From positions 12,462 through 76,461 of the forward strand of contig CAZEAE010000003.1 of the NCBI GenBank assembly GCA_964510095.1: a DNA stretch of 64,000 nucleotides, given 5' to 3'. Shown piece after piece: positions 8,230 to 58,842 of this stretch (its first letter is position 1; every line of letters starts with the position of its first letter). Made by a program: the position numbers and the translations under genes. Origin of the DNA: an uncultured Elusimicrobia bacterium (GTDB lineage: Bacteria; Elusimicrobiota; Elusimicrobia; UBA1565; UBA9628). A model generated the notes under the pieces. It ran no database searches, was not told the origin of the DNA, and saw nothing but the letters and a program-made list of their open reading frames with translations.

Positions 8230-9011
8230 AGCCAGCCCGCCGCCGCGGCCAGCACGCCGGCCGCGCAGCTGCCGGCGTAGAGCCGGTACGAGGAGACGGG
8301 GATGGCCTTGAAGCCCGCGAAGCTGGCCAGCGCCAGCACCGCGAACAGCCGTCGCTCCGCGGGCGCGCAGCGCAGCAGCAGGGCCGTGGCGGCCAGCGCC
8401 GCGGCCAGCCCGGTCAGCCTCACGGCGCGGATCGCTTGGCGCAGCGGCAGCTCCTTGAGCGCCCCGGCGATCGCCGCGGCCCGCCGGTAGCCGAACCCCA
8501 AGCCTGCCCAGCGCGCGACGAAGACCGGGATGTTGTAGCAGGCCAGGCCGGCGGCCAGCGGCCACGCCAGCGAGCTCGGCCAACCGCGGGGGCTGACGGC
8601 CAGCAGCAGGGCCGCGGCCAGGGCGGCGCACAGCGGCCGCAGGCCATCCCAGAAGAAGGCGTCGCCGAACGCCGCGAGGGTGCAGGAAAGCGCGGTCTTA
8701 AGGGCCTTGAGCCTGGCGATCTTGACGGAACGCTCGGCCGCCGGCGTCTTGGCGGCGTCCTCTTCCAGGGCGCAGACCATGCCGACGATGACCGGAGACA
8801 TATAAGGCTGCGTGTTGAAATATTCCTGGTGACGCGCCAAGGCCCGCCGCCCCTCCTCGGGCTCTCCGCGATAGCAGCGGCGCAGCCAGGGCTGCACGCA
8901 GCAAGCAAACCCCAGGCTCTGCATCCGCTCGAAGCTCCAGCAGGACTGCAGCAGCAGGGATCGAAACATGACATCCAACCGGATGGCCAGCGGCAGGCCT
9001 TGGCCGCTCAT
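8226..9011 (-). CDS. PTS mannose/fructose/sorbose family EIID component
   Basis: HQEYFNTQPY motif, polytopic; start chosen at MSGQGLPL (ATGA overlap with IIC stop); stop overlaps ptsH start (ATGA). Confidence 0.7.
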   Translation of the reverse strand: MSGQGLPLAIRLDVMFRSLLLQSCWSFERMQSLGFACCVQPWLRRCYRGEPEEGRRALARHQEYFNTQPYMSPVIVGMVCALEEDAAKTPAAERSVKIARLKALKTALSCTLAAFGDAFFWDGLRPLCAALAAALLLAVSPRGWPSSLAWPLAAGLACYNIPVFVARWAGLGFGYRRAAAIAGALKELPLRQAIRAVRLTGLAAALAATALLLRCAPAERRLFAVLALASFAGFKAIPVSSYRLYAGSCAAGVLAAAAGWL

Positions 9012-9616
9012 GGTCTGGGCCTCAGCGAGCGGAGCAGGGTGGCACAGGCCAGCCACGGCGCCATGGAGAGACCGAAGCGCAGGCCCGCCTGGATGAAGCT
9101 TGGCAGCAGCGGCCAAGCCCGGTGGAGCAGCGGGCTCAGCGCATAGGCCGCGCCGAGCAGCACCAGCAGCGTGGCCGCGGCCTGGCCGGCCAGAGACAGC
9201 GCCGAAAGCCCCAGATAGGGAGGCTCTTCCCCGCGCAGCAAGCGCTCATCGGCGACCCGGCAAAGCAGCGACCTCCGCTGGCGCTGGTATTCTTCGAGCT
9301 TCTGGTGGACCCAGCCGACGCCAAGGCCGGCGGGCAGGGCGGCTTCCAGCGGCACCGCCCACGGCCCCAGGGTCATCAACAGCGCCGCGGCGGCGGCGAT
9401 GGTGGCGTTGAGAGGAAGATGGCCGCCCACCGGCAGCTCATCGAAGCTCATGAACTCCAGCGGGATGCCGACCATCAGCCCCACGTCCGGCCGCCCGAAG
9501 GCCGCTCCCAGCAAGGGACCGACGACGATCGGCCTTGAGAGCATGAACTGCCCCGCCGAAGCGGCGTCGAGCTCGACAAGGGAAACGGCGCCTGCGGCCG
9601 CGACCACGCTCATCAT
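9008..9616 (-). CDS. PTS mannose family EIIC component
   Basis: hydrophobic 202-aa permease between IIB and IID with ATGA overlaps at both ends. Confidence 0.6.
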   Translation of the reverse strand: MMSVVAAAGAVSLVELDAASAGQFMLSRPIVVGPLLGAAFGRPDVGLMVGIPLEFMSFDELPVGGHLPLNATIAAAAALLMTLGPWAVPLEAALPAGLGVGWVHQKLEEYQRQRRSLLCRVADERLLRGEEPPYLGLSALSLAGQAAATLLVLLGAAYALSPLLHRAWPLLPSFIQAGLRFGLSMAPWLACATLLRSLRPRP

Positions 9617-11386: not shown

Positions 11387-12315
11387 TTGGCCTTCATCCG
11401 CTCTATGAGCTTCTGGTTGAAAGTCTCCGCGGAAAAATAGCCTTGGCTGCGCAGCCGCTGGTTGAGCGCCGCCACCTCTATGATCACCGCCAAGTTGCGC
11501 CCGGGGCTGACGGGGATGCACAACAGCGGCACGTCGACGCCCAAGATCGTCGTCTTCTTGGTATCCAAGCCCACGCGCTCGTAATGCGTGGACGCCGTCC
11601 AGGGCTCCAGTCGTATGGCCAGCTCGACGCGGGTCCGGTCCAGGATCGAGCCGATCCCGAAAAGAAGCTTGACGTCGATGACGCCGAGGCCGCGCACCTC
11701 CATGTAATGCTTCAAGGGTTCCGGGCAGCTGCCGCGCAGCACACCGCCCCGACGGTGCTGGATCTGGACGGCATCATCGGAGATCAAGATATGGCCCCTC
11801 TTCAAAAGCTCGAGGGCGCACTCGGACTTGCCGATGCCGGGGTCTCCCTGGATCAGCACGCCCAAGCCGTAGATATCTACCAGCACGCCGTGGACGGTCG
11901 TCAGCGCGGCTAGGCGAGTCTCCAGGAATTCGGAGAGCTCTCCGACAAAGGTCGCGGTGTCGAGGCTCGAACGCAGGAGCGGGACGCCGTTCTTGCGGCA
12001 GGCGGAGGCCAGCGAGGCGGGGGTCGTAGGGTTATGCGTCATGATGACGCAAGGGATGTCGCTGGATTCCAGCATCGCGGCCAGAGATTCCTCCAGGTTC
12101 TTTCGGGGCGCCTTCATGCAGTAGGACTGCTCGCCGATGCCGATGATCTGGACGCGTTCCGCGCGGAAGTGTTCGAGAAAGCCGCTCAGCGCCAAGCCGG
12201 GACGGTTGAGCTCGGAGACCTTGATCAGGCGCCCCAAGGACTTCTCGCCGGTGACGAGCTCGAGCTTAAGCCGGTCGCGCTGCTCTTTGAGAAGGTCGCC
12301 GACGGTGAGGTTCAC
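11383..12315 (-). CDS. hprK: HPr kinase/phosphorylase
   Basis: GDPGIGKSECALEL P-loop, 310 aa, overlaps rapZ start by 4 nt. Confidence 0.85.
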   Translation of the reverse strand: MNLTVGDLLKEQRDRLKLELVTGEKSLGRLIKVSELNRPGLALSGFLEHFRAERVQIIGIGEQSYCMKAPRKNLEESLAAMLESSDIPCVIMTHNPTTPASLASACRKNGVPLLRSSLDTATFVGELSEFLETRLAALTTVHGVLVDIYGLGVLIQGDPGIGKSECALELLKRGHILISDDAVQIQHRRGGVLRGSCPEPLKHYMEVRGLGVIDVKLLFGIGSILDRTRVELAIRLEPWTASTHYERVGLDTKKTTILGVDVPLLCIPVSPGRNLAVIIEVAALNQRLRSQGYFSAETFNQKLIERMKAK

Positions 12316-13146: not shown

Positions 13147-14499
13147 GTGAATAACCAAGATCCTCGGGCGTTTTGGCTACGAGCGGTCGATGTCCTCCGG
13201 GGAGAGATAGGAGAGGAGAACGCCGAGCTTTGGCTCAAGCCTGTCGAAGCGCTTCGTTTTGACGAGCAGGTCCTGGTTTTAAAGGTGCCCAACAAGTTCT
13301 TCTCCGATGGCATCAAGGAGCGATACCAAAAGAAGCTGGTCGCGATCTTCAAGGACCTCTCGAGGCTGGACGTCGGCTTGGACTACGAGATCTCGCGGGA
13401 CTTGCGCAGCGTGCTCCCCGCTTCCGACCCCGTCCCGGAGCCCGGGCCTCAGTCTGACTTTCCCCTCAGCGAGCTCAACCCCCGCTACACCTTCGCCTCC
13501 TTCGTCATCGGAGCGTCGAACCGATTCGCCCATGCCACCGCCGAGTCGATCTCGAAGAATCCGGGGAAACAATACAACCCTTATTTCATCTACGGCGGCG
13601 TCGGCTTGGGCAAAACCCATCTTATGCATGCCATCGGCAACGCCATGCGCAAGGAGCATCCCCGCGCGCGCGTTCTCTACACGACGGCGGAGCAATTCGT
13701 CAACGAGTACATCACCTCGGTCCAGAACAACAAGCCTGACGACTTCAGGGCGAAATACCGCAACCTCGACTGCCTGCTGCTCGATGATATCCAGTTCCTC
13801 ATCGGGAAGGACCGCAGCGTCGAAGAGTTCTTTCACACCTTCAACTCGCTGTTCCAGTCTCAAAAACAGCTTATCATCTCGTCGGACCGCTCTCCGCAGG
13901 AGATGGCGCCCTTGGATCAACGCATCACCTCGCGCCTTGCCTGGGGCGTGGTCGCCGACATCACGATCCCGGACCTCGAGACACGCATCGCCATCCTGCG
14001 CAAGAAGGCCGGCGCTGAGAATTTTACCGTGCCCGACGACGTCATCTTGTTCGTGGCTTCGGCCGTGAAGTCCAATATCCGCGCCCTGGAAGGATCCCTT
14101 ATCCGCCTGACGGCCTTCTCGGCCATGTCCGGCAGCAGCTTGACCGTCGACGACGCCAAGGAGATATTGAAGGACTCCCTCAGCACGGACAACACCTCCC
14201 CGGTCCGCATAGAGACGATACTGAGGATCGTCTCCCATAAATATTCCATCGACGTTAAAGACCTCAAGGGACATCAAAGGACCGCCTCCATCGCCCTGCC
14301 CCGCCAGTTGGCCATGTATCTAGCCTGCGTGATGACGGAGCTTTCCTCCACCGACATAGGGCGCGCCTTCGGCGGAAAAGACCATTCCACCGTGCTCCAT
14401 GCCCGGAAAAAGATCCAAAAGCAGGTGGAAGAAGACCCCTTTATCCTGGAAGTGATCAATAAGCTACAATCAGACATCAAGGCTGTGGAAAACCAGTGA
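13147..14499 (+). CDS. dnaA: chromosomal replication initiator DnaA
   Basis: GGVGLGKTHLMHAIGN Walker A, AAA+ sensor motifs, C-terminal DNA-binding domain; GTG start. Confidence 0.95.
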   Translation: MNNQDPRAFWLRAVDVLRGEIGEENAELWLKPVEALRFDEQVLVLKVPNKFFSDGIKERYQKKLVAIFKDLSRLDVGLDYEISRDLRSVLPASDPVPEPGPQSDFPLSELNPRYTFASFVIGASNRFAHATAESISKNPGKQYNPYFIYGGVGLGKTHLMHAIGNAMRKEHPRARVLYTTAEQFVNEYITSVQNNKPDDFRAKYRNLDCLLLDDIQFLIGKDRSVEEFFHTFNSLFQSQKQLIISSDRSPQEMAPLDQRITSRLAWGVVADITIPDLETRIAILRKKAGAENFTVPDDVILFVASAVKSNIRALEGSLIRLTAFSAMSGSSLTVDDAKEILKDSLSTDNTSPVRIETILRIVSHKYSIDVKDLKGHQRTASIALPRQLAMYLACVMTELSSTDIGRAFGGKDHSTVLHARKKIQKQVEEDPFILEVINKLQSDIKAVENQ

Positions 14500-14650
14500 A
14501 AGAAACCGCTGTTAGGACGAATAACCCGCAATGCTGTGGATAATGGGGATAAGTAATCGAAGTTGTCCACAATCCGTTTTTTTGATGGCGGCAGGGAAGA
14601 CTCTCTTATCCACAACTCGGCGATGCTGATTAATAAGAGGATGAATTAGA
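14500..14650. promoter_or_regulatory. oriC: oriC segment 2: DnaA-box cluster between dnaA and dnaN
   Basis: TGTGGATAA 14525..14533, TTGTCCACA 14553..14561 (1 mismatch), perfect TTATCCACA 14606..14614, AT-rich tail. Confidence 0.55.
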
Positions 14651-15765
14651 ATGAAAATAATATGCAGTAAAGAAGACCTGGCTCAAGGAGTCCAAACCAT
14701 ACAGTCCGCGCTGTCTTCCCGGACGACCCTTCCCATACTTCTCAATTTCCTTCTAGAGACGGAAAATTCAAAAGTCAAAGTCATTTCGACCGATCTTGAG
14801 ATGGGCGTGAAGCATTATATCGGAGCGGCGGTGGAAAGCGACGGCGCCATCACTATCCCCGCTAAAAAATTCTCAGACATCCTCCATAGCCTCCCGGACG
14901 GGCAGGATGTGGAGCTTTCCGTCGATTCCGGAGATAAAATACAGCTTAAGTGCGGCCGTTCCCGGTTCGGTATCATAGGTGCGCCTAAATCGGAATATCC
15001 CGTCCTGCCTGATTTCAGCAAGGAGAACGCCTTTCAGGTCCCGGCCGGGGTCATCGGGGATATGGTCAAAAAAACCATCTTCGCCGCTTCTTCAGATGAG
15101 ACAAGACATGTGCTCAACGGCGTCTTCTGGTCCGCCAAGAAGGGAACCTTGGAGATGGTGGCCACCGACGGGCGCCGCCTAGCGGTCGTCGCCAAGAAGA
15201 TCGTCCCGAAGGAGAAGGATTTCTCCGTGATCGTGCCGACCAAGGTACTTTCGGAGCTTTTAAGGCTTTTCAGCTCCATGGATATAAAGAGCGACTCGAC
15301 CGAGCCGATGCTGGTCTCGGTCACCGATAACCAGATAACCTTCCAATTCAAGACGACGACTTTATTATCGCGCTTGGTCGGAGGAGCTTTCCCTAACTAC
15401 GAGCAGGTCATCCCGAGCAAGAAGGATATAGTCATACTCCTCAACACCAAAGACCTCATCGCCGTCACGAAGAGAGCCTCTCTTTGCGCCATCGACCGCG
15501 GCGGCTCGGTCAAGTACGTGCTTAAAAAGGGAACGCTGTTCGTCTCAGCCTCCAGCCAAAACCAGGAATTCAGCGAGGAGCTCCCGATCGAGTTCTCGGG
15601 AGATGAGTTCCAAGTCGCCTTCAATCCTCAATTCGTCATGGACGCCTTGAAGCATGTCGATGCCGAGAAGATGACCCTGGGGCTGACCACGCCGGTCAAT
15701 CCCGCGCTTATCGAGCCGGAGGGCAAGGGTGACTATAAATTCGTCATCATGCCTATGCGGATCTG

Positions 15766-15766
<1 letters not shown>
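14651..15766 (+). CDS. dnaN: DNA polymerase III beta sliding clamp
   Basis: MKIICSKEDL start, 371 aa three-domain clamp, canonical position after dnaA. Confidence 0.95.
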
Positions 15767-18698
<2,932 letters not shown>

Positions 18699-25361: not shown

Positions 25362-26334
25362 AAGGAACGACGGAAGGCTCGCTTTGTCCGGTCACGCCGG
25401 ACACGTTGCGCGCCGCGCCGCGCAGGTAGAGCCCGGCGCCGACCTTATCGGCGGGCAGGCTGAACAGGAAGGGCTGGCGGCGCTGCAGGCGCGTGATGCG
25501 CTCCCAATCCAGCTGGTCGCGGGAGCTTTCGACCCAGGCTTCGTCGATGTTCTCTCCCGACACCGAGAAGGACGCCACGTAGCGCTTGCCCGCCCTTTGG
25601 GCGCTGAACTCCGTGACCGCGATCTCCTCGGAGCCGGAGGGCACGAGCTTGATGGCAAGGGCCGGGTAGATGCTGTTGATCGGGGTTTCCAGGGCCGTGG
25701 CGGCGTTGCGCGGCGGCACGCCCGAGATCGAGTGGTTGTTCCAGGCGCGGGTCTCGCGCGGAGAAGAATCCTCGACGGGGGCGGCGGCCAGGATGGGCGC
25801 GCTCGAGGCTCGGACGAAGTGCTGCGTCGGCGACCAGACGATGAGGTAGTTGGGCTGCGAGAAGCTGACCATGGCGCGAGGCACCTCGGCCCAGAACCAG
25901 TCCGACCCGCCGACGCCTTCGAGGTAGGCATGAGCGTCGGGCTCCAAGGGCAGGTCGGAGGTCTCGGCAAGGAAGAAGCTCTGCTCAGCGGTGAAAGACG
26001 GCGTCTGCGACACGCCCATGTAGACCTTGCCTGCGATGAGCTCGCGCAGCCAGGGCTTGTCGACGTTGGGGCGGGTCTTGGCGCGGCCTATCTTCGCGCC
26101 GATGAAAGCCCTGGAGAAATCCCCCAGCGGCGCCGGCGGGAGCTTGATGATCCAGGCGTTGTTGAAGCCGATGAACCAGTTGGCATCAGAACCGCTATCG
26201 GCGAAGCGGCCGAAGTCGTTGATGCTGGCCGCCAGCGAAAGATAGGTCGGCAGGATCGTGCTTGTTGAGAACACGGGGGCTTCAAAGCCCCAACTGGTCC
26301 CCGCCAGGAAGATTGCTAAATACGAAAAAATCAT
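25351..26334 (-). CDS. hypothetical secreted protein
   Basis: N-terminal hydrophobic segment MIFSYLAIFLAGTSWG, no recognisable catalytic motifs. Confidence 0.35.
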   Translation of the reverse strand: MIFSYLAIFLAGTSWGFEAPVFSTSTILPTYLSLAASINDFGRFADSGSDANWFIGFNNAWIIKLPPAPLGDFSRAFIGAKIGRAKTRPNVDKPWLRELIAGKVYMGVSQTPSFTAEQSFFLAETSDLPLEPDAHAYLEGVGGSDWFWAEVPRAMVSFSQPNYLIVWSPTQHFVRASSAPILAAAPVEDSSPRETRAWNNHSISGVPPRNAATALETPINSIYPALAIKLVPSGSEEIAVTEFSAQRAGKRYVASFSVSGENIDEAWVESSRDQLDWERITRLQRRQPFLFSLPADKVGAGLYLRGAARNVSGVTGQSEPSVVPYGP

Positions 26335-27215
26335 TATTTTTTAAACATATTTACGATTTTATCAAAGTCCGTCAACGAGTAAAAATGGATCGTGATCTTG
26401 CCCTTGGTTGGATCCTTTTTCGTCCGGATGTCTACCTTGGTGCCCAAGACCTGCTGCAAGGCGCCCTCCAGGGCCTTGATATCGGCTGATTTCGGGGTTT
26501 GGGGTTTTATGGAAGGCAAGGGGGTTTCCAATCCTTCGCCAGCCTCGACCTTGCGGGCCAGGTCTTCGGTTTCACGCACCGAGAGGCGGCGTTCCTGGAC
26601 TATATCAAAAAGTCCTTTTCTTTCCAGCGGATTTTTAACAACAAGCAAGGCTCGGCCATGGCCTTCGCTGATCTGGCCGAACTCTAGGGCCTTCTGGATC
26701 TCGTCGGAAAGTTCGAGCAAGCGTAGTGTGTTGGAGATCACGGCCTTGGACTTTCCTACGATCTGGCCGAGTTCGGTCTGATTGATCGAGAACTCTTTCA
26801 TCAATCGAAGGAAGCCTAGCGCTTCTTCGATGGCATTAAGATCCTCTCGCTGGATGTTCTCGATAAGAGCCAAAGCCAAGCGCTCTTTGTCTGATTTCGG
26901 GTGTCGAACGATCACCTCGACTTCATCGAGGCCGGCGAGTTCGCAGGCGCGCAGACGGCGTTCTCCCGCGATGAGTTCATAGGAGTTGTCGCTCTTGTCG
27001 AAGGATACGAGGATGGGTTGGGCTAGTCCATGCTCCTTGATGGAGGCGGATAATTCGCTCAAGCGTTCCGGGTCGAAATGGCGTCGCGGCTGGAGGCGGT
27101 TCGGCCGGATCTTAGAGATAGAAATCAGTGACGTTTGTTCTTTTGGGGTGATCACCGAGGGCTTTGGGGCGACAGGAATGAGAGCATCAAGACCGCGGCC
27201 TAGGGCGTTTCTCAT
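26334..27215 (-). CDS. parB: chromosome partitioning protein ParB
   Basis: GERRLRA ParB box (LIAGERRLRACELAGL), HTH, 293 aa; overlaps parA stop. Confidence 0.9.
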   Translation of the reverse strand: MRNALGRGLDALIPVAPKPSVITPKEQTSLISISKIRPNRLQPRRHFDPERLSELSASIKEHGLAQPILVSFDKSDNSYELIAGERRLRACELAGLDEVEVIVRHPKSDKERLALALIENIQREDLNAIEEALGFLRLMKEFSINQTELGQIVGKSKAVISNTLRLLELSDEIQKALEFGQISEGHGRALLVVKNPLERKGLFDIVQERRLSVRETEDLARKVEAGEGLETPLPSIKPQTPKSADIKALEGALQQVLGTKVDIRTKKDPTKGKITIHFYSLTDFDKIVNMFKK

Positions 27216-28024
27216 GAGGGATTCTCCAGTGTGATGGTTTCCGTAGGTGCGGGCAGGTCGACGCCGCGGCGGGCAAGAAGCTCGCGAGCGAAGGCTGCAT
27301 AGGCTTCAGCTCCCTTGGATTTTGGGTCGTACTGAAATATGCTTTGACCGAACCCCGGCGCTTCGGCAATGCGGATGTTTCTGGGGATGATCGTGGAAAA
27401 CATTCGGGGTCCGAAAAACTTGCCGACCTCGTCTTTGACCTGATTAGAGAGCGTCATCCGGGCATCGAACATGGTAAGTACCCCCCCCTCTATCACTAGG
27501 TTAGGGTTGAGGGCTTGCTGAATCCGTTGGACCGCGTCTATGAACTGGGCCAATCCCTCCATGGCATAATATTCGCCCTGGATCGGTACGATGGTCTTGG
27601 ATGCGGCATTGAGAGCGTTGATCGTCAATAGGCCAAGAGAAGGCGGGCAGTCGATGATAATGTAGTCGAAGCGGTCCTTGATGCCGCTTAAGGCTCCCTT
27701 GAGCCTGCTTTCTCGGGCAAGCGCGGATACGAGTTCGACTTCTGCGCCGATCAGGTCTTGATTTGAGCCGGCAACGGACAAAAAAGAGAGCGCTGTCTCT
27801 TTGATGGTTTTTTCCAGAGGCATCAATTCAACGAGCACGTTGTAGATGTTCGGGGTAAAAGAACGCTTGTCAAAACCGAGGCCGGAGGTGGCGTTTCCTT
27901 GGGGATCCATGTCTATTAGCAATGTTCTTTTCCCGTGGCTGGCTAGGGCTGCGGCCAAATTGACGGCCGTTGTCGTTTTTCCCACCCCCCCTTTTTGATT
28001 CGCTATCGCAATTATTTCAGACAT
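27212..28024 (-). CDS. parA: chromosome partitioning ATPase ParA/Soj
   Basis: deviant Walker A NQKGGVGKTTTAVNLA, 270 aa. Confidence 0.9.
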   Translation of the reverse strand: MSEIIAIANQKGGVGKTTTAVNLAAALASHGKRTLLIDMDPQGNATSGLGFDKRSFTPNIYNVLVELMPLEKTIKETALSFLSVAGSNQDLIGAEVELVSALARESRLKGALSGIKDRFDYIIIDCPPSLGLLTINALNAASKTIVPIQGEYYAMEGLAQFIDAVQRIQQALNPNLVIEGGVLTMFDARMTLSNQVKDEVGKFFGPRMFSTIIPRNIRIAEAPGFGQSIFQYDPKSKGAEAYAAFARELLARRGVDLPAPTETITLENPS

Positions 28025-28274
28025 TGGTGTTTTTAAAAGTTTTCACGTGGAAACTCTGTTTTTTTCCTGGAAAGTGATAAAACTATAACAGATAACCCAG
28101 ATTCTGTCAATAAAAAAAGTCGTTGCGGCTGTTCAATATGTGTTATATATTGATATATATTATCTTTTATGTGTTTTAGTTGCTATGTATTATCATATAG
28201 TGACTTCTATTATCTTGCAAAGGTCGTCTATTTCAAATACAATGGCAGGCCGCAAAAAAAGGGGGGGGCTGGCT

Positions 28275-29633
28275 ATGGAAAAGAACCGCAAGCTCGACGG
28301 CTTGCTTCGCTCGATCCGTGCGGGGCAGACGCAGACCGTTCTTTTGGCTTTTCCCGACATGCAGGGCCGCTGGATGGGAAAGCGCGCCACAGGCCGGCAT
28401 TTCGCCGAGACCGTTTCGCGGCACGGCACGCATGCCTGCGCCTATCTGCTGACCGTAGACATGGAGATGGATCCGGTGCCCGGCTATGAGCTGACGAGCT
28501 GGGCCAAGGGCTACCAGGATTTCCTGCTGGCGCCGGACCTCTCGACGATCCGGCCGCTGCCTTGGCAGCCGGGCACGACCTTGATCGTCTGCGACCTCAA
28601 AAGCGCCGATGGCACAAAACCCGTGGCGGTCGCGCCGCGCCAGATCTTGAGAGACCAGGTCTCACGGGCCGCCGCCGAAGGCTTCAGCTTGAAGATGGCT
28701 TCCGAGCTGGAGTTCTATCTCTTCAAAGAGACCTACGACAGCGCGCAGAAGAAGCGCTGGCATGACCTGGAGCATTTCGGCTCCTATATCGAGGACTACC
28801 ACATCCTGCAGGGCACCAAGGAAGAGTTCGTCGTCGGCGACATCCGTAATCTCATGGAGAAGGCCGGCATCCCCGTGGAGACCTCCAAGGGGGAATGGGG
28901 ACCGGGTCAGCACGAGATCAACCTGGGCTATGCGGGACCCGTCGAGACGGCCGACTGGCATACGATCTATAAACACGGAGCCAAGGAGATCGCCATGCAG
29001 AAGGGCGTCAGCATGACCTTCATGGCGAAATTCGATTCCAAGCTGGCGGGGTCTTCCTGCCATATCCACACGAGCTTGTGGGACAAGGCCGGCAAGAAGC
29101 CGCTCTTCTGGGAGGGGGGGAAAGCCAGCAAGCTCTTCCGTCATTTCCTGGGCGGGCAGATGGCCTTGGCGCGCGAGCTGTCCTATTTCTACGCCCCGAC
29201 GGTCAACTCCTACAAGCGTTATCAGTCGTCCACCTTCGCGCCGACGCGCATCGCTTGGGCGGCCGACAACCGGACTTGCGGCTTCCGCACCGTCGGAGAG
29301 GGGGGGGCTTACCGCATCGAGAACCGCATCCCCGGCGCCGACGTGAACCCTTATCTGGCTTTCGCGGCCACCATCGCCGCCGGTCTCTACGGCATCAAGA
29401 ACAAGATCGAGCCGCCGCCGGAGCTCAAGGGCAACGCCTACGAGAGCAAGGTCGCGCCCGTGCCCAAGACCCTGCACGAAGCCATCGCGCTGCTCGAGAA
29501 GTCCAAGGCCGCCCAGCAGGCCTTCGGTGAAACGGTGTTCAAGCACTACCTGCACACGGCGCGCGCCGAACAAGCGGCGTACGACCGGGCGGTGACTTGC
29601 TGGGAGCGCGAGAGGAATTTCGAGCGGATCTGA
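28275..29633 (+). CDS. glutamine synthetase family protein (GlnA-like; possibly gamma-glutamyl-polyamine synthetase type)
   Basis: GEWGPGQHEINLGY and KFDSKLAGSSCHIHTSLW GS catalytic signatures; start moved to ATG 28275 preceded by G8 Shine-Dalgarno-like tract; ORF-track N-extension lies in AT-rich intergenic DNA. Confidence 0.75.
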   Translation: MEKNRKLDGLLRSIRAGQTQTVLLAFPDMQGRWMGKRATGRHFAETVSRHGTHACAYLLTVDMEMDPVPGYELTSWAKGYQDFLLAPDLSTIRPLPWQPGTTLIVCDLKSADGTKPVAVAPRQILRDQVSRAAAEGFSLKMASELEFYLFKETYDSAQKKRWHDLEHFGSYIEDYHILQGTKEEFVVGDIRNLMEKAGIPVETSKGEWGPGQHEINLGYAGPVETADWHTIYKHGAKEIAMQKGVSMTFMAKFDSKLAGSSCHIHTSLWDKAGKKPLFWEGGKASKLFRHFLGGQMALARELSYFYAPTVNSYKRYQSSTFAPTRIAWAADNRTCGFRTVGEGGAYRIENRIPGADVNPYLAFAATIAAGLYGIKNKIEPPPELKGNAYESKVAPVPKTLHEAIALLEKSKAAQQAFGETVFKHYLHTARAEQAAYDRAVTCWERERNFERI

Positions 29634-52033: not shown

Positions 52034-52789
52034 TTAATTCTCGGAGTGCGGCTCGCGCAGGCTGGTGAGGATATCGCGGTAGATCTCGTCTTCTTGGCCG
52101 GCGGTGAAGTGGTACAGGTGCGTTCCTCCCAGCAGATACGCGTAGACGCCGGGGTCGGGCAGCTCGACGGTCACTTGGATGCCGCGCAAGGACGAGACCT
52201 GGAGGTTCTTCAGCAGGAACTTGTCCCCGCGCTGGGTCAGGCGCGAGGTGACGGTGCGGCCCAGCATCTCGGCGCCGTTGAGGTTTCCGGCCAAGGAGTT
52301 GCGTTCGACCTCCAAGCGCACGATGCCCAGCTGGCCGAAGAGGCCTTCATTGAGGAAGTTCGTCGGGTCCGTGCCGGTCTTGCAGAAGTGGACGATCTCG
52401 ATGGTCTTTGAGCGGTCTTTGAAGCCCGCGACGGCGGAGTAGTCCTTGGGCAGATGGACGACGTACCCCGTCGCGCCGACGAAGGCGGAATCGCTGCCGG
52501 AAGGAGTTGCCGCGGCCGGGGCTGTCTCGGGTCTTTCTCCGAGGGCGACGAAGGCGGCCACGCCTGCGATGAGCGCGATGCCGGCGACCAGGAAGACCGC
52601 TGCGGCCTTTCCTTTGGGCTTGGCGCGCGCGGCGGCGGCTCCCGGCGCCGGGCCGCGCAAGGCGGCTTTGAGGGCTTCGTCGAAATCGGCCTCGGAGATG
52701 CCTTCCGAGGACAGCTGGCTGCGCAGCTGCTCGATGGGGTGGTTCTTCAGGTTGGCCTGAAGATAGGCGACGACGTCGGGTTCGACCAT
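52034..52789 (-). CDS. hypothetical membrane-anchored protein
   Basis: single central TM after Ala-rich basic segment; no motifs. Confidence 0.35.
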   Translation of the reverse strand: MVEPDVVAYLQANLKNHPIEQLRSQLSSEGISEADFDEALKAALRGPAPGAAAARAKPKGKAAAVFLVAGIALIAGVAAFVALGERPETAPAAATPSGSDSAFVGATGYVVHLPKDYSAVAGFKDRSKTIEIVHFCKTGTDPTNFLNEGLFGQLGIVRLEVERNSLAGNLNGAEMLGRTVTSRLTQRGDKFLLKNLQVSSLRGIQVTVELPDPGVYAYLLGGTHLYHFTAGQEDEIYRDILTSLREPHSEN

Positions 52790-52854
52790 GGTATGCGGGC
52801 CTTATTACTATACCCCTAAATGCCGCTCTTGGCCAGGGGCGGAGTGGAAAAATC

Positions 52855-52928
52855 TGCGCCCGGCTGGACTTGAACCAGCGACCCTTCGGTTATGAGCCGA
52901 GTGCTCTGACCAACTGAGCTACGGGCGC
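52855..52928 (-). tRNA. tRNA-Met (anticodon CAU; elongator-type or tRNA-Ile2 lysidine substrate), no encoded CCA
   Basis: reverse complement folds as cloverleaf: acceptor GCGCCCG/CGGGCGC, D-arm GCTC-AGTTGGTCA-GAGC, anticodon loop CTCATAA, T-arm GCTGG-TTCAAGT-CCAGC; anticodon-stem pair 29-41 is C-G so not the initiator. Confidence 0.85.
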
Positions 52929-52930
52929 GT
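52889..52930. repeat. 42-bp direct repeat copy 1 (tRNA-Met positions 1-39 plus 2 flanking nt)
   Basis: gttatgagccgagtgctctgaccaactgagctacgggcgcgt identical to 55948..55989. Confidence 0.85.
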
Positions 52931-53678
52931 CCTTGTATTTTACAGAGTTTTTCCCCGTCGCGGGGCGGCTTGTGGGCGCCGTCTGTGGCCAAACTGTGGC
53001 CAAGAAGGTCATGCGTGTCATCTGGGGGCCGCGACCGACTGAGGAACAAGGACATTTACTTTCGGGGCTGTCATTGGGTCCATTAGGTATCTCCCGCCGA
53101 CGGGGATGAATTCCCTCACGACGAGTCTTCGGGCGGCCTCCTCGCTGATGCGACCGCGACTTGAGGGAAGAAAGGACGATTAGAAACCCGGTCTTTCGTG
53201 CAATTTGGGCGCCTGGCCATTACCAACAACCAGCTTCATGAGTGTAAGACACATGGCACCGCGCACCCCGTCCGCTACCCGCTCCTGGTCATGGGGGCAT
53301 TCGAACACGGTGCGGAGAATAGGATGTAACCCAGCGTGAATCACCAGTGGTATTGCGCCGCAATGACGTGGACACTCTGTTACTCCGTCGCCGTGTATGC
53401 ACATGGCTACGCCCAAATAGCTTGACCAGGGTTTGAGCTACCAGAAGACCAGCATCTTGCTTGGCCTGGTTAAACGAACGTCCTGCCCTCAGGCGTTGCA
53501 GGCGAGCCTCACGGATAGTCCTTAGAACGAACAGAGTCACATCCTCGCCCGCAGGCCGTCTTGCAAAGTATGCGTTGATTGCTCTGCGGATCACGGGTAT
53601 AAGTGGCGCGAGATACCGTGTTCGACGTCGCGCCTTGTCTGTATCGGATGGAAACTCATCCTGTCGCACCCATACCAT
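52931..53678 (-). pseudogene. tyrosine recombinase (phage-type integrase) remnant with frameshifts
   Basis: three minus-strand frame fragments in collinear order: DVTLFVLRTIREARLQRL...QAKQDAGL (53289..53678), TECPRHCGAIPLVIHAGLHPIL (53180..53416, resembles HxLRHTfA block), DLLGHSLATDG (52816..53055, resembles LLGHssi.tT block) running into the tRNA; catalytic Tyr not found. Confidence 0.35.
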
Positions 53679-53727
53679 GATACCCCCTAGACTTCTTTCG
53701 CCAAGGTCCCCCTACATGCCACGGCTC

Positions 53728-55722
53728 TCACCGAAGTCGCGTTCCCTGTATCTTGCCGCCTGCTGGTAAAAGCTGCGGCGTCTGATCCCGGTTGTGCAGC
53801 CGTGCCGCGTCCTGGACTTTTGGGGTCAGGTAGTCGTAGAGGGATTGCACCGTCACATGGCCGGAATCGTTCTTCGCCTCGCCACCCAGCCCCTTAAGCA
53901 GGTAATAGGTGAACGCCCCATGCCCCTGATTTTCAATCGTGCCGGAGATTTCGTTCTTGTCGGATGCCGTAAGCGCGATCACGTTGCCCGGCAGGACCCC
54001 TAGGTCAATCTGGCTGACAAGGGGCCGTGTTCCATTGGCCAGAACAGAGCGTCCGCCAGCCCCGGAGAAGCAGGAATCGAGGGCCACAATCACATGGCGG
54101 GCCTTGAGACTGCCGAGTTTTGCGTATAGTTGCTTGATGGGGTAAGCGGTACTATCGAGGTCTTCGGCGTCACCATCCACAGGAACAAGGTAGGCCTGGT
54201 TGGTCCGAGGATCGGGCGCCCCATGTCCCGAGTAGTAGAAGAAAACAGTCGACTTGTTGCTGACGCGCTTCGGCAACCAGGTGTTGAGGGCCTGGTCGAT
54301 CTTGGCTCTGGTGGCTTGTTGGCCGCCTAGAAAATAGATGTTTCGCGGTGGGTAGCCGAGTGCTGTCAGATGCGCGCGGACGGCGGCGGCATCTCGCTCG
54401 GCAAAATCTGCGGCGGGGAGGCCCACATATTTTTCGATGCCGATGATGACCGCGAAAGCATTGGGATTCTCCTTTGCTGAATATTCAGGCTTATCGACGT
54501 CGGAAACAATGGGTTTGATTGCATCTTTAGTGGCGGGGTTTTCATACTTCATCGACGCCTCAGGCGAAGCGGGCACTTGTAGGTCTGTCGCCATTTTACC
54601 CACGTCCACCTGCGCCAGCGTGTTGGACGTTTCACCCGAGACGGCGATTGCTGCCATTGATTTGCCAGCCACGATCAGCTCTGCTGATACAACCGAAAGT
54701 GATCCGTTTGTCGCGAGGAACTGGATAATTGGCTGCGCTTTGGTGAGCTTCCGGTCAAAAGCGTTTGCTTCCGAGCTTGGGATGGCGTCCTTCAATTTGA
54801 GCTTGATCGCAAATCCGCCAGACTTTTCTCCTGTGGGGAGGATGTCGACAAAAAAACTCTGGGAATCCGAATCGTAATCGGTCTTGCCCACTTTTGGGTT
54901 CTCAAATACCGAGGTGAAGGCCGCTTCCATGATTTCAGAGTTGGGCGCTGAGTTCAACCTGTCATTGTAGCTTCGCACTGCATCTTTATAAGTTTTCTCT
55001 GCCTGGTTCACACGCGCGGCAAAGTCAGATTTTCCCTCATACTTTCCTTGATTCAACACTGGTGATACTGGCTTTGGGCCAGCATAATCCAGGATGATCT
55101 CGGGTACTCGGTAGGCCACGAGATCAAGGCCAGACTTGTGCAGCGTCCATGCGATACCGTCACGTGAACCGACGCAGGTGTAATCTCCAACGCTATTATC
55201 AAACTCCTTTTCAAACTGGCCTATCGTGTTGCTCCAGTTACGGGGCGTGTCGAACGATTTCCCATCTGAAGAAGGCACAGCATACAGCCAGCCATAGTCT
55301 CCAATCACGATTTTATACTGGCCATCGGGAGTGAGCAGGGCATCCATGTTTGGATAGACGTTTGGTTCGGTAAATGTGTATGGCATGAAAATGGCCGACT
55401 CGCTGTCTCGTCCATGTCGTCTGTTTTTCTTCAAGAGTTTCTTAACGAGCGGTGATTCTTGGTGACGACCCCAGGTGAACTGAGAGGATGTGGTAGGTTC
55501 CTGCTTCGCGCCCGCCGATTTCTCGGCAACTGGAGAGCACCAGACATCGTTGGATAGGCAGAGAATCGCCGTCACCGGCGCGACCAGCAACGCCAGCAGA
55601 CCGGCCAGCAGGGGCTTTTTCACAAGGCCAGTATAAGCCCGCTGTCGAGGGCCGTCAAGAGCGCATCTGCGTCTGCCTGACTCTCTGGGTTGGCCGGGGC
55701 TCTGCCTCCGCGCATTCATCAC
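53728..55722 (-). CDS. secreted caspase-family (peptidase C14, orthocaspase-like) protein with ~400-aa unknown N-terminal region
   Basis: C-terminal FAVIIGIEKY...VFFYYSGHG (catalytic His)...HVIVALDSCFSG (catalytic Cys); N-terminal signal-like KKPLLAGLLALLVAPVTA; alternative GTG start at 55623; lower GC than flanks. Confidence 0.75.
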   Translation of the reverse strand: MMNARRQSPGQPRESGRRRCALDGPRQRAYTGLVKKPLLAGLLALLVAPVTAILCLSNDVWCSPVAEKSAGAKQEPTTSSQFTWGRHQESPLVKKLLKKNRRHGRDSESAIFMPYTFTEPNVYPNMDALLTPDGQYKIVIGDYGWLYAVPSSDGKSFDTPRNWSNTIGQFEKEFDNSVGDYTCVGSRDGIAWTLHKSGLDLVAYRVPEIILDYAGPKPVSPVLNQGKYEGKSDFAARVNQAEKTYKDAVRSYNDRLNSAPNSEIMEAAFTSVFENPKVGKTDYDSDSQSFFVDILPTGEKSGGFAIKLKLKDAIPSSEANAFDRKLTKAQPIIQFLATNGSLSVVSAELIVAGKSMAAIAVSGETSNTLAQVDVGKMATDLQVPASPEASMKYENPATKDAIKPIVSDVDKPEYSAKENPNAFAVIIGIEKYVGLPAADFAERDAAAVRAHLTALGYPPRNIYFLGGQQATRAKIDQALNTWLPKRVSNKSTVFFYYSGHGAPDPRTNQAYLVPVDGDAEDLDSTAYPIKQLYAKLGSLKARHVIVALDSCFSGAGGRSVLANGTRPLVSQIDLGVLPGNVIALTASDKNEISGTIENQGHGAFTYYLLKGLGGEAKNDSGHVTVQSLYDYLTPKVQDAARLHNRDQTPQLLPAGGKIQGTRLR

Positions 55723-55947
55723 CGCGCAGAGATCCTGGCGCCGCTGTCAGGCCAGGGGTCGCCGACTTCCCAGTGGCTGCGGGCTGCACACGCATCCATG
55801 TGGCCAAGTTGTGGCCAAGACCTTCAGGAAACCGTGCGAAAAGACGCGAAAGGTCGCGTAATGGCGGGAAGGCGGATTAAACGCTTGCTCATCGACAAGC
55901 AGCATTTCTCGACGGGCCGGAACTACACGCAAGAAGCGTGATAAGAC

Positions 55948-55989
55948 GTTATGAGCCGAGTGCTCTGACCAACTGAGCTACGGGCGCGT
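55948..55989. repeat. 42-bp direct repeat copy 2 (truncated tRNA-Met 5' half, attR-like)
   Basis: identical 42-mer; lacks the tRNA 3' half, so not a functional gene. Confidence 0.85.
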
Positions 55990-56057
55990 GGTAGGATTTT
56001 ACAACACTTTCTCGGGTCGCCGGGTCCTTCAGCGGTGGTGTCCCTCCTGCTCGAAGA

Positions 56058-56525
56058 CTAGCGCCCCGCCTCGAGCTCCTGGACGTCGAGAAGGTCCTTC
56101 GGACGGGCGACGGCGCGTTTATTGCGGATCAGATCCTCTCGAGAGATGAAGTTGACCGTTTCCGCGCCGAAGGAACCGGTCTGGCGGCGGGACCAGGCCT
56201 GCTCGAAGTCGACGCCGGGAAGCTTGGACAGGATGTCCACCTTGACCGGCGCGTCACCCAGCGAGATCCCGTTATCGCGGGTAAAAACCTCGGGCCGCAG
56301 CTCGGGACAAGCCCCGCCCGCGTCCTCCAAGGCCGCCACGGCCCGTTTGGCATTGTCTTCGCTGGGTCGGATGTAAAGATCGAGGTCTTCGGTCATGCGC
56401 ACATGGCCGTAGTACACGACGGCCCAGCCGCCGATGACCATGAAGTCGACGCGGTGCCGGTTGAAGGCGGCTACGATCCTGTCGAAGGCATCCGGCTCGG
56501 AGGCCTCTTGAGGGCTTGGGCTCAT
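56058..56525 (-). CDS. minimal nucleotidyltransferase-fold protein
   Basis: FMVIGGWAVVYYGHVRMTEDLDLYI matches the GG...[DE]xD NTase signature; 155 aa. Confidence 0.5.
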   Translation of the reverse strand: MSPSPQEASEPDAFDRIVAAFNRHRVDFMVIGGWAVVYYGHVRMTEDLDLYIRPSEDNAKRAVAALEDAGGACPELRPEVFTRDNGISLGDAPVKVDILSKLPGVDFEQAWSRRQTGSFGAETVNFISREDLIRNKRAVARPKDLLDVQELEAGR

Positions 56526-56737
56526 CAGGTTCGATAGGGCCCGATGACGCGCGCGGCCTTGCTCAAGGGAGGGAGGTCCTGACGGTGGAATAGACGCCAG
56601 AATTTGCGGCGCAGCTTTTTCGCGCCCTCGATGCGTTCTTCAGGCGGTCGTGAGAGCCAATAGGCGCGATTCTCCGCGCTGGAATCAGGCCAGGTCCCCT
56701 TGGGGATGATCGTGACCGCTAGTTTCTGGCGTTCCAT
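56525..56737 (-). CDS. hypothetical small protein upstream of the NTase gene
   Basis: 70-aa ORF whose stop abuts the NTase start; basic, no motifs; overlaps the end of the YfhO-like gene by 19 nt, so the call is weak. Confidence 0.2.
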   Translation of the reverse strand: MERQKLAVTIIPKGTWPDSSAENRAYWLSRPPEERIEGAKKLRRKFWRLFHRQDLPPLSKAARVIGPYRT

Positions 56738-58842
56738 GGTCTTGGCTTAAGTATAACAGATTCATGGATTTTTGCGAGAGCCGCAACTAAGAGGAAGACC
56801 AGGCTGGCCGCCGTCACCGCCAGGCCGAGCCGCCAGCCGACCGGTTCAAAATGCAGGCTCAGGCGGTGCTCCCCCGGCGGCACCCAGGCGCCGAGCAGGG
56901 CGACGTCGGTCTTGTAAAGCGGCAGAGCGGCTCCGCCCAAGGTCGCGCGCCAACCCGGATGCCAGACCTCGCTGATCGCCAGGTAGCGCTTGAGCGGGGT
57001 GGAGACCAAAAGCTCCAAGCTCCCGGGCTTGGCCGCGAGGACTTCGACGCGCGAGGGCTTCCCGGCGCCGGGTGTGCTTTCTTGCGGCAAGGATTCAATG
57101 ACCGCTTCCTTGCGCGCGTCGGTTTTTTGCAGCAGTGCGACGGCTTGATCCTGGTCTGCGGCGAAGCGGACGCCGTCGACGAAGAAGGCCCGCCCCAAGG
57201 CGCCCCGGTTCTCTCGTATGTGGGTGTCGCCGCGACGCAGCCCGCGATAGAGCTCGAAGATCGGCTGGTCCTTGAGGTCGGCTCCGGAGGCGGCGGGGTC
57301 CTTCGGCAACTGCAGCGGGCGCTTCTCGGAGATTAGGAAGCGCACGCCGAGCGCGTCGAGCAGGTCGGGGCGCGCCAGGTCGGTCAGGTCGGTCCAGACC
57401 CGGGCGCCCTCCGGGCGCAGCTTGTTCCAGCGCAGGAGGTCGAAGTAGGCCTGGTAATGGTTATAGTTGTAGGAGCCGTAGCCCGTGATCAGCGGCAGGC
57501 CCAGGGATGCCGACCAGCCGTAGTTGATGACGCCGCGCTCGATGGGAGCGATGCGATAGACGCCTTTCTGTTCGGCGAAGAAATCCCGGTAGGAGGGCGC
57601 TGGAAGCAGTCGTTCGATGGGCGCCGTCTTCAAGTAGCGTCTTGCGTAGTAAGCGCCTTCGATCGAGATCAGCGACACGAGGGTGAGCGCCAAGGCCCTG
57701 CGCGCGGCCGCGCTCTTGAGCCGGGCCAGGATCTCGTCGAGGCCCAGGCCGGCCAGCGCGATGCCGAACCAAGAGCCGAGGAACAACAGCCGCCCCGGCA
57801 GCCGGAAGAGGCTAAACCCCGGCAAGGTCTCGAAGAGCAGCCTTTGCAGCGGGCTGCGCAAGGACAGGGCCGCGCAGACGAGCAGCGCCGCCGTCAGTGC
57901 CCGGACCATCGGACGCCGCCGGCCTAGGATCGCGGCCGCCAGCGCCAAGGCCAGGGGAATGATCCCGAAATAGGCGACGTCCTCCCAGAGCTCGAGCCCC
58001 GGATAGGTGCCGTCTAGCGGATTGCCGAGCAGTTCGGGCCGCAGGAAGGTCAGCAGGTGCCTTGGCGTCAGGGCGTGGCCGCCCAAGAAGAAGTCGTAGG
58101 AGGCCTGCCCGCGCGAGATGAGCGGCGCTTCGCCGGCCAGCGGGATGAGCAGGCAGGCCGAAAGCCCCGCGGCCAAGACCATGCCGGCCAGCAGGACGGT
58201 CAGGACCGCGCGCGACCGGAGGCGCGCCGCGACGAGGCAGGTCAGCGCCAGGACGGAATAAAAAAGCAGCTGCAGGTGACCCGAATGCAGGCAGAGCGCT
58301 CCGGCCAGCCCCAGCCAGAGCGCTTCTGAAATCCGAGGCCGCTCGACGGCGCGCAGCACCGCCGCGTAGAGCAGCGGCAGGACGATGACGCCCGGGAAGC
58401 TCGGCAGCCAGCCGGCGGCTCCGATGATGATGAGCTTGAACTGGAACATGGCGGCTGCGCCCATGAAGAGCCGGGCCCAGAGCCCGGCTTGAAGCGCGCA
58501 GCCCGCCGCGTAGCCGATGACGCCGGCTGCTAAGAAATACAGCCAGAGGGAAGGCCCCAGGGCTTTCAGCGGAGGCAGCAGCCAGAACAGCGCGTTCAAG
58601 GGAGACGTGTAAGCGTTCTGCGGGTCGATGAGCGCGGCGTTGCCGGAGAACTGATCGGAGCGCCAGAGGGGCAGGCCCTGTCCCGAGTGGAGCGAATCGT
58701 AGAGTACGGTCTTGGAGGCCAGGCCGAACGAGAGAAAGTCGGAGAAAGGCGTATACGGCGCTTGGCCCGGACGCAATAAGAAGCCGTAGCCGGCCAGCGA
58801 CAAGAGCAGCAGCGCGCTCAGCGCGGCGGCATGGGACTTCAT
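56719..58842 (-). CDS. YfhO-family polytopic membrane protein (putative lipid-linked glycosyltransferase)
   Basis: 707 aa, >12 TM N-terminal region plus large C-terminal soluble domain, architecture of YfhO-like proteins. Confidence 0.5.
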   Translation of the reverse strand: MKSHAAALSALLLLSLAGYGFLLRPGQAPYTPFSDFLSFGLASKTVLYDSLHSGQGLPLWRSDQFSGNAALIDPQNAYTSPLNALFWLLPPLKALGPSLWLYFLAAGVIGYAAGCALQAGLWARLFMGAAAMFQFKLIIIGAAGWLPSFPGVIVLPLLYAAVLRAVERPRISEALWLGLAGALCLHSGHLQLLFYSVLALTCLVAARLRSRAVLTVLLAGMVLAAGLSACLLIPLAGEAPLISRGQASYDFFLGGHALTPRHLLTFLRPELLGNPLDGTYPGLELWEDVAYFGIIPLALALAAAILGRRRPMVRALTAALLVCAALSLRSPLQRLLFETLPGFSLFRLPGRLLFLGSWFGIALAGLGLDEILARLKSAAARRALALTLVSLISIEGAYYARRYLKTAPIERLLPAPSYRDFFAEQKGVYRIAPIERGVINYGWSASLGLPLITGYGSYNYNHYQAYFDLLRWNKLRPEGARVWTDLTDLARPDLLDALGVRFLISEKRPLQLPKDPAASGADLKDQPIFELYRGLRRGDTHIRENRGALGRAFFVDGVRFAADQDQAVALLQKTDARKEAVIESLPQESTPGAGKPSRVEVLAAKPGSLELLVSTPLKRYLAISEVWHPGWRATLGGAALPLYKTDVALLGAWVPPGEHRLSLHFEPVGWRLGLAVTAASLVFLLVAALAKIHESVILKPRPWNARN

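Follow-up and report, generated by a model that had tools for sequence, protein, structure and literature searches.

Among the 3,919 transfer RNA (tRNA) gene (tDNA) islands catalogued by Islander, 3,760 have a 3' fragment of the target gene and 159 have a 5' fragment (PMC4383910). In Archaea, the 5' half of a tRNA gene serves as the target of pTN3-like elements, and the tRNA is expressed from the promoter of the element; targeting of the 5' half has been described in a review as seldom encountered in bacteria (PMC8371274). A further class, the cis-mobilizable elements (CIMEs), has kept the attachment sites attL and attR and lost the integration genes (PMC5704250, PMC6323972). We analysed a 64-kb stretch of DNA (64,000 nucleotides; the window) of an uncultured Elusimicrobia bacterium, which derives from a Hainich aquifer metagenome contig (well H51). 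A tRNA gene with a CAU anticodon in this window very probably carries a small, CIME-like integrative element without an integrase, which is inserted in the rare orientation that displaces the 5' fragment of the target gene. The duplication of the 5' half had been called unusual in an earlier reading of this DNA (the original prediction); it is rare, but has already been documented (PMC4383910, PMC8371274).

Limits of the element and its target gene

The element is bounded by an exact 42-bp direct repeat (coordinates of all features are given in Table 1), the two copies of which are the only ones in the 64 kb even if three mismatches are allowed; none of 100 shuffled sequences contained any match. 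The repeat consists of tRNA nt 1-40 plus 2 nt upstream and terminates one base past the anticodon loop. The original prediction was therefore right that the copy is exact, but had placed its extent at positions 1-39. In the direction of the tRNA, the partial 5' copy (55989 to 55948) comes first, followed by 3,017 bp of unique sequence and then by the full gene (52928 to 52855), so that the element measures 3,059 bp between the starts of the two repeat copies. The occupied left junction reads tRNA 3' half - repeat - CCTTGTATTTTACAG and the occupied right junction reads GTGATAAGAC - repeat - GGTAGGATTTTACAAC; the circular attP junction, as reconstructed from these ends, would read GTGATAAGAC - repeat - CCTTGTATTTTACAG.

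The target is the single tRNA that ARAGORN identified in the whole window (52855-52928, minus strand, anticodon CAT). The Rfam tRNA model RF00005 matches the same interval at 71 bits, and the Rfam scan found nothing apart from this tRNA. The label Met, which ARAGORN assigns because of the CAU anticodon alone, was also used in the original prediction; while the tRNA, its anticodon and its strand were correctly called there, the gene probably encodes tRNA-Ile2 (lysidine) rather than tRNA-Met, as judged from its sequence. Its nearest Escherichia coli gene, with 84% identity, is annotated by PGAP as 'tRNA-Ile' with a CAT anticodon, and the two share an identical T arm as well as C4/C5 in the acceptor stem. 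As a rule, genomes have one copy of the tRNA-Ile2 gene and cannot do without it; this would account for the need of the element to carry a working promoter.

An empty site in a different strain

Public genomes and metagenomes were scanned with the first 40 nt of the tRNA, and four stretches were returned (L005, L003, L004 and L006). One of these is L005, a contig of 1,292 bp that was assembled from a different Hainich well (H41) in the same aquifer, and in which positions 52719-52930 of the window are fused directly to positions 55990-56782, with the junction tRNA 3' half - repeat - GGTAGGATTTTACAAC. The match to the window extends over 1005 nt, 999 of which are identical (99.4%), with 6 mismatches and no gaps. 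Since this contig has single nucleotide polymorphisms (SNPs) of its own on either side of the junction and diverges from the window past 56782, it represents a different strain. The comparison with relatives proposed in the original prediction thus yielded the empty site that was to be looked for.

The other three stretches come from more distant Elusimicrobia and have one tRNA each. On the 3' side of this tRNA, all three carry a homologue of the 251-aa gene, and synteny extends over approximately 5 kb in L004. The upstream flank of the tRNA reads AAGTGTTGTAGAAT in L003 and L004 and CGTAGGATTTTACAACA (on the plus strand) in L006. This flank agrees with that of the partial copy in the window (AAGTGTTGTAAAAT) and not with that of the full gene (AAACTCTGTAAAAT); the partial copy and its flank therefore represent the ancestral 5' half and promoter. 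The 5' half that is now in use arrived with the insert.

These comparisons support a true insertion at the tRNA gene. As an alternative, the locus could be a decayed tandem duplication, in which the 3' half of the upstream one of two tRNA(CAU) genes was lost and the space between the genes filled with unrelated DNA. A weak similarity does persist for approximately 35 nt upstream of both copies (22/35 positions), as such a duplication might leave behind. This origin is nonetheless extremely unlikely, as in a strain with 99.4% identity the outer flank directly follows one tRNA, three relatives have a single tRNA, the repeat halts at the anticodon loop and phased repeats lie inside both ends. The claim of the original prediction that this is integration, with the element supplying the tRNA's 5' half and its promoter, is thus upheld by the empty site and by the flanks in the relatives.

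A second alternative is an assembly artefact, in which either the insert or the empty site was mis-joined across the short repeat. The data come from short-read metagenome assemblies, L005 has a coverage of only about 1x, and two Logan contigs break at the tRNA. However, the occupied arrangement was seen in several independent contigs and samples, the contigs being 0.2-1 Mb in length; both occupied junctions sit within long unbroken contigs, and the SNPs specific to the L005 strain flank the empty junction. One of the two broken Logan contigs (L016, k = 31) ends inside the repeat after exactly 30 nt, which is what a true repeat predicts. Taken together, these data make an artefact highly improbable.

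The other Logan contig (L002, k = 31; its positions 1-31 correspond to 52885-52855 of the window) begins at tRNA nt 44 and thus misses the repeat by 4 nt. From the 42-bp repeat, a start 30 nt inside would be expected; the repeat does not account for the start point seen, which suggests that the sample contains a further sequence variant there.

Promoters and arm-like repeats at the ends

The 35-nt regions upstream of the full tRNA and of the partial copy each contain the extended -10 sequence TGTAAAAT, and the distance of 8 nt from +1 is common to the element side, the native promoter and the relatives. The ancestral promoter region is kept in L003, L004 and L006 (AAGTGTTGTA[A/G]AAT) and is identical in L005. 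The element-borne extended -10 promoter is predicted to be active.

A short motif, TGTGGCCAA, occurs as a tandem pair with 11-bp phasing approximately 55 nt inside the left end and again approximately 128 nt inside the right end of the element, on the same strand. Exact copies of this motif number four in the 64 kb, all of them at the element ends, compared to 0.26 expected by chance; none of 100 shuffles gave four copies. By analogy with known integrase systems, the two pairs are candidate arm-type sites for a tyrosine integrase. The reverse complement of the motif, TTGGCCACA, resembles a segment of the tRNA D-loop, TTGGTCAGA (7/9 positions), which lies at 52905-52913 and 55964-55972, within the core identity block; this likeness may be a coincidence.

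The segment enclosed by the repeats contains two open reading frames (ORFs) with homologues, a caspase-family gene and a 129-codon ORF that we refer to as ORF129.

Table 1. Coordinates of features at the tRNA(CAU) locus of the window
Feature	Position	Strand	Description
tRNA(CAU) gene	52855..52928	-	Functional; nt 41-74 ancestral, nt 1-40 element-derived or shared; ARAGORN and Rfam
Direct repeat, copy 1	52889..52930		Core identity block at the tRNA-proximal junction; exact match
Element-borne tRNA upstream region	52931..52965	-	Extended -10 TGTAAAAT (52944->52937), 8 nt from tRNA +1
Tandem TGTGGCCAA pair, left end	52984..53005	+	11-bp phased; candidate arm-type recombinase-binding sites
ORF129	53289..53678	-	Intact, 129 aa; stand-alone form of an unannotated domain elsewhere fused to a PIN-like domain
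Caspase-family (Peptidase C14) cargo gene	53728..55623	-	631 aa from GTG at 55623; N-terminal half nearly unique
Second tandem TGTGGCCAA pair, right end	55799..55820	+	Same 11-bp phase; candidate arm-type sites
Direct repeat, copy 2	55948..55989		Displaced ancestral tRNA 5' fragment; outer flank runs on unbroken in the empty-site contig L005
Ancestral tRNA promoter, now orphaned	55990..56024	-	Extended -10 TGTAAAAT (56003->55996), 8 nt from old +1

ORF129 and the supposed integrase remnant

The original prediction placed a frameshifted tyrosine-integrase remnant at approximately 53180-53700. Profile searches gave no significant match for such a remnant, the best integrase match in this stretch being PHROG 216 ('integrase') with E = 0.14, and the stretch instead codes for ORF129. 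Similarly, the description of the element as degraded holds solely in the sense that it is without an integrase, as ORF129 is intact. Two frameshift-corrected reconstructions of an integrase, for which R-I and box II motifs had been read by eye, were negative against Pfam, PHROGs, PDB, an index of 5.8 billion proteins and phages (tblastn); because the stretch codes for ORF129, the apparent integrase motifs are regarded as pareidolia.

No frame of 53180-53700 showed significant similarity to the catalytic R..HxxR..Y boxes, and PF00589 did not match any ORF, small ORF or reconstruction in the element. Neither a split integrase of the SSV type nor any ORF spanning the reconstructed circular junction was found. 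Integrase, relaxase and type IV secretion system genes were likewise not found in the element. Outside the element, a phmmer search of the six-frame translated window with two integrases of an element-like contig described below (L012) found no integrase, although this is a weak test. Integrase homology being absent, the element is considered, on the basis of these searches, to encode no recognisable recombinase, and it would be missed by island finders that depend on an integrase.

An exhaustive HMMER search with ORF129 found 90 homologues at E <= 1e-3. The top-listed protein, P0121 (3,950 aa, with 43 matched stretches), was set aside as it seems to be a match to repetitive sequence; the best real match is P0122 (62% identity, E = 7e-38). 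About a third of the homologues are stand-alone proteins of 124-149 aa, while many others are approximately 400-450 aa long and have the domain at the N-terminus, followed by a PIN-like domain. ORF129 covers the full domain and keeps all invariant residues, and its fold, as predicted with the family alignment by AlphaFold2 (AF2), had a predicted local distance difference test score (pLDDT) of 96.6 and a predicted template modelling score (pTM) of 0.90. A tblastn search with 35 long-form relatives did not find a remnant of the PIN domain downstream of ORF129. The family is not recognised by Pfam, NCBIfam, PHROGs or PADLOC, and when its alignment was run as a profile against the 5.8-billion index, 3 proteins only were returned.

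These findings bear on a third alternative, according to which the element is a once-autonomous island with its tyrosine integrase surviving as a frameshifted pseudogene at approximately 53180-53700. Integrase genes usually adjoin the att core and read towards the tRNA, and the stretch in question has this location and this direction; the weak PHROG 216 match mentioned above also points this way. By contrast, ORF129 aligns end to end with another protein family (P0122), with the invariant residues and the confident fold described above, PF00589 did not match any of the family members scanned, and other frames and small ORFs gave no recombinase match. An integrase pseudogene at this position is therefore regarded as highly unlikely.

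The long forms were found in several contigs that suggest an association with mobile DNA. In L012, the long form lies between two integrases of a region that resembles an integrative and conjugative element (ICE); in L013 and in the IMG/VR contig L017 the long forms are located beside DUF4365 (restriction-endonuclease-like) proteins, and in L014 the long form adjoins a PemK toxin. No tRNA gene was found at the three long-form loci that came from the protein index (L012, L013 and L014), nor in 9.3 kb of L017. ORF129 represents an unannotated, confidently folding family that travels with mobile elements.

The contig L012 itself is AT-rich and ICE-like, with two near-identical integrase genes (8267-8566 and 15481-15780). 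The 3'-end sequence of these integrase genes is present in three copies (9502-9591, 12124-12164 and 16716-16805), which bracket a 2.6-kb cassette with the long-form ORF129 relative, a structure similar to tandem accretion.

It could also be proposed that the element is autonomous by means of an unrecognised recombinase, with either ORF129 or the unique N-terminal half of the caspase protein carrying out integration. ORF129 does adjoin the att core, and members of its family, the function of which is not known, are found near integrases and transposases and on a viral contig. We consider such autonomy very unlikely.

The caspase-family cargo gene

The caspase-like gene noticed in the original prediction was confirmed by a match to PF00656 above the Pfam threshold (E = 6e-16, 59 bits compared to a cut-off of 21.4) and by the PADLOC 'caspase' model (4e-20); its translation contains YSGHG and DSCFSG, the His and Cys motifs. 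The gene call in the public record (L001) starts this gene at 55386, which gives a protein of 552 aa. The C14 domain (53728-54500) shares 60-83% identity with hundreds of Elusimicrobia proteins, and these have unrelated N-terminal modules (ankyrin, SEL1/TPR, beta-helix, PDZ and WD40). By their sequences, the Elusimicrobia C14 proteins can be described as a large, domain-shuffled paralogue family. Because the C14 domain is common across Elusimicrobia, the donor of the element was probably another Elusimicrobia lineage. Two homologues (P0015 and P0009) are located in ordinary chromosomal neighbourhoods with no tRNA or integrase there. The occupied and empty forms of the site show that, in a single aquifer, strains have gained or lost a caspase-family gene.

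Proposed history of the insertion

The arrangement described above most likely arose when the element entered a single tRNA(CAU) gene, in the region of its anticodon loop, by site-specific recombination. The attP would have carried tRNA nt -2 to 40 as well as an extended -10 sequence of the element, and would have recombined with the chromosomal tRNA; strand exchange would have taken place in the anticodon loop, where the identity block has its edge. The working tRNA would then consist of the promoter and 5' half of the element joined to the ancestral 3' half, while the ancestral promoter and 5' half would be stranded 3 kb upstream. This orientation would force transcription of the tRNA from the promoter of the element. 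The integrase may have been provided in trans by a helper element, or may have been lost without a trace. We infer that the agent was a tyrosine recombinase and that the crossover was located in the anticodon loop.

A more specific proposal is that the element is a minimal 'hitchhiker' that at no time needs an integrase of its own: a helper integrase reads the TGTGGCCAA arms while ORF129, which is winged-helix-like, acts as an att-binding or directionality factor. This proposal is unlikely, but if it were true, the element, having exchanged the promoter, would control the expression of a probably single, essential tRNA-Ile2 gene, and the ORF129 proteins would be a new family of DNA-binding proteins with an accessory role in integrative elements.

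Several observations weigh against an integrative element as the source of the insert. The empty site depends on one contig of 1.3 kb, where a de Bruijn path might, at such low coverage, conceivably have jumped across the 42-bp repeat. In the sequence that could be searched, namely the window and what directly adjoins it, no integrase able to act on the sites was found. Related elements, whether intact or not, were not found either: in genome and metagenome scans the tRNA 5' half was present in five public stretches only, all of them chromosomal, and IMG/VR contains neither this tRNA half nor the arm motif TGTGGCCAA. Moreover, the role of TGTGGCCAA as an arm site is argued by analogy alone. 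Finally, base composition is ambiguous. The enclosed 3,017 bp have a G+C content of 0.559, while the remainder of the window has 0.647 (z = -2.3 relative to 3-kb windows located elsewhere), and the G+C content at third codon positions (GC3) is 0.62 for the caspase gene and 0.81-0.89 for the flanking genes. The lower G+C content claimed for the segment in the original prediction was thus confirmed by computation, but the dip is not unique within the window, which also holds dnaA-dnaN-gyrB and parB-parA-glnA (13147-18698 and 26334-29633); dnaA, dnaN, parB and parA are equally low in G+C (0.53-0.58), with a GC3 of 0.62-0.63 for parAB. As these core genes match the dip of the element, composition is supportive rather than decisive. 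The low G+C content of dnaA, dnaN, parB and parA is in itself odd for core genes in a genome with 65% G+C.

Sequences adjoining the attachment site

On the outer side of the partial copy, the window carries a gene at 56058-56737 (minus strand) that encodes a nucleotidyltransferase with weak matches to AbiEii, DUF6036 and aminoglycoside nucleotidyltransferases. This gene overlaps a 70-aa ORF, so that the two resemble a toxin-antitoxin pair adjoining the attachment site; its G+C content is slightly below that of its neighbourhood, and in L003 and L004 that side is occupied by a different gene. In L005, the divergence from the window (L005 1006-1292; from 56782 in the window) begins within the 3' end of a YfhO-like gene, and the new sequence contains two direct TAAGATGTNACCGAAC repeats followed by the start of an ORF (MSPLARREYVRHMQGRY...); this stretch resembles one end of an insertion sequence. 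In L006 (JGI contig Ga0182024_10732593), positions 180-1215 on the 5' side of the tRNA hold an ORF that has a proline-rich repeat and begins with a ribbon-helix-helix-like N-terminus, as well as several GTTAACA repeats, and may represent another mobile element on the same side of the tRNA.

Comparison with known systems

To our knowledge, almost no mobile elements have been described in Elusimicrobia. While the current understanding of tRNA-targeted integration is unchanged by this element, it provides a clear example, complete with an empty site, of an integrative element that replaces the promoter and 5' half of a bacterial tRNA gene in the rare orientation.

The closest likeness is to the Islander islands with a 5' fragment and an anticodon-centred site (in the classification of Williams 2002), which also have a full tDNA with an end fragment in the same orientation upstream. 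As in these islands, the identity block runs from the anticodon loop to that end of the gene which the element restores, and the length of 3,059 bp falls within the range of 2-200 kb used by Islander. By comparison, an integrase (PF00589), which Islander requires, is missing here; the element is also very small (3 kb), and its host belongs to the Elusimicrobia from a groundwater metagenome.

With regard to CIMEs, the element is similar in that it has no recombinase while the 42-bp cores are exact copies and the TGTGGCCAA pairs at the two ends are intact, a state of preservation that does not imply competence for recombination. CIMEs were defined from decayed ICEs or integrative and mobilizable elements (IMEs) of Firmicutes, are usually located at 3' gene ends and are often found in tandem with an ICE. 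Unlike CIMEs, this element showed no ICE partner, origin of transfer (oriT) or tandem array. By analogy, the element would work like an Islander island and a CIME, although the status of a strict, ICE-derived CIME cannot be shown.

The resemblance to the pTN3-like elements of Thermococcales lies in an attB that corresponds to the tRNA 5' half, and in an element-borne extended -10 sequence that is found here at the native spacing. However, pTN3-like elements are archaeal and encode an integrase, the promoter of which drives the tRNA, whereas the element described here has a bacterial host and no integrase, and its extended -10 sequence is of the tRNA type and copies the native geometry. When joined as a circle, the ends also resemble a heterobivalent attP of the lambda type, with a core in the identity block and direct repeats in helical phase within approximately 55-130 bp (TGTGGCCAA twice per arm). 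Unlike in the lambda type, no integrase or excisionase gene is present in the element, so that this resemblance is structural only.

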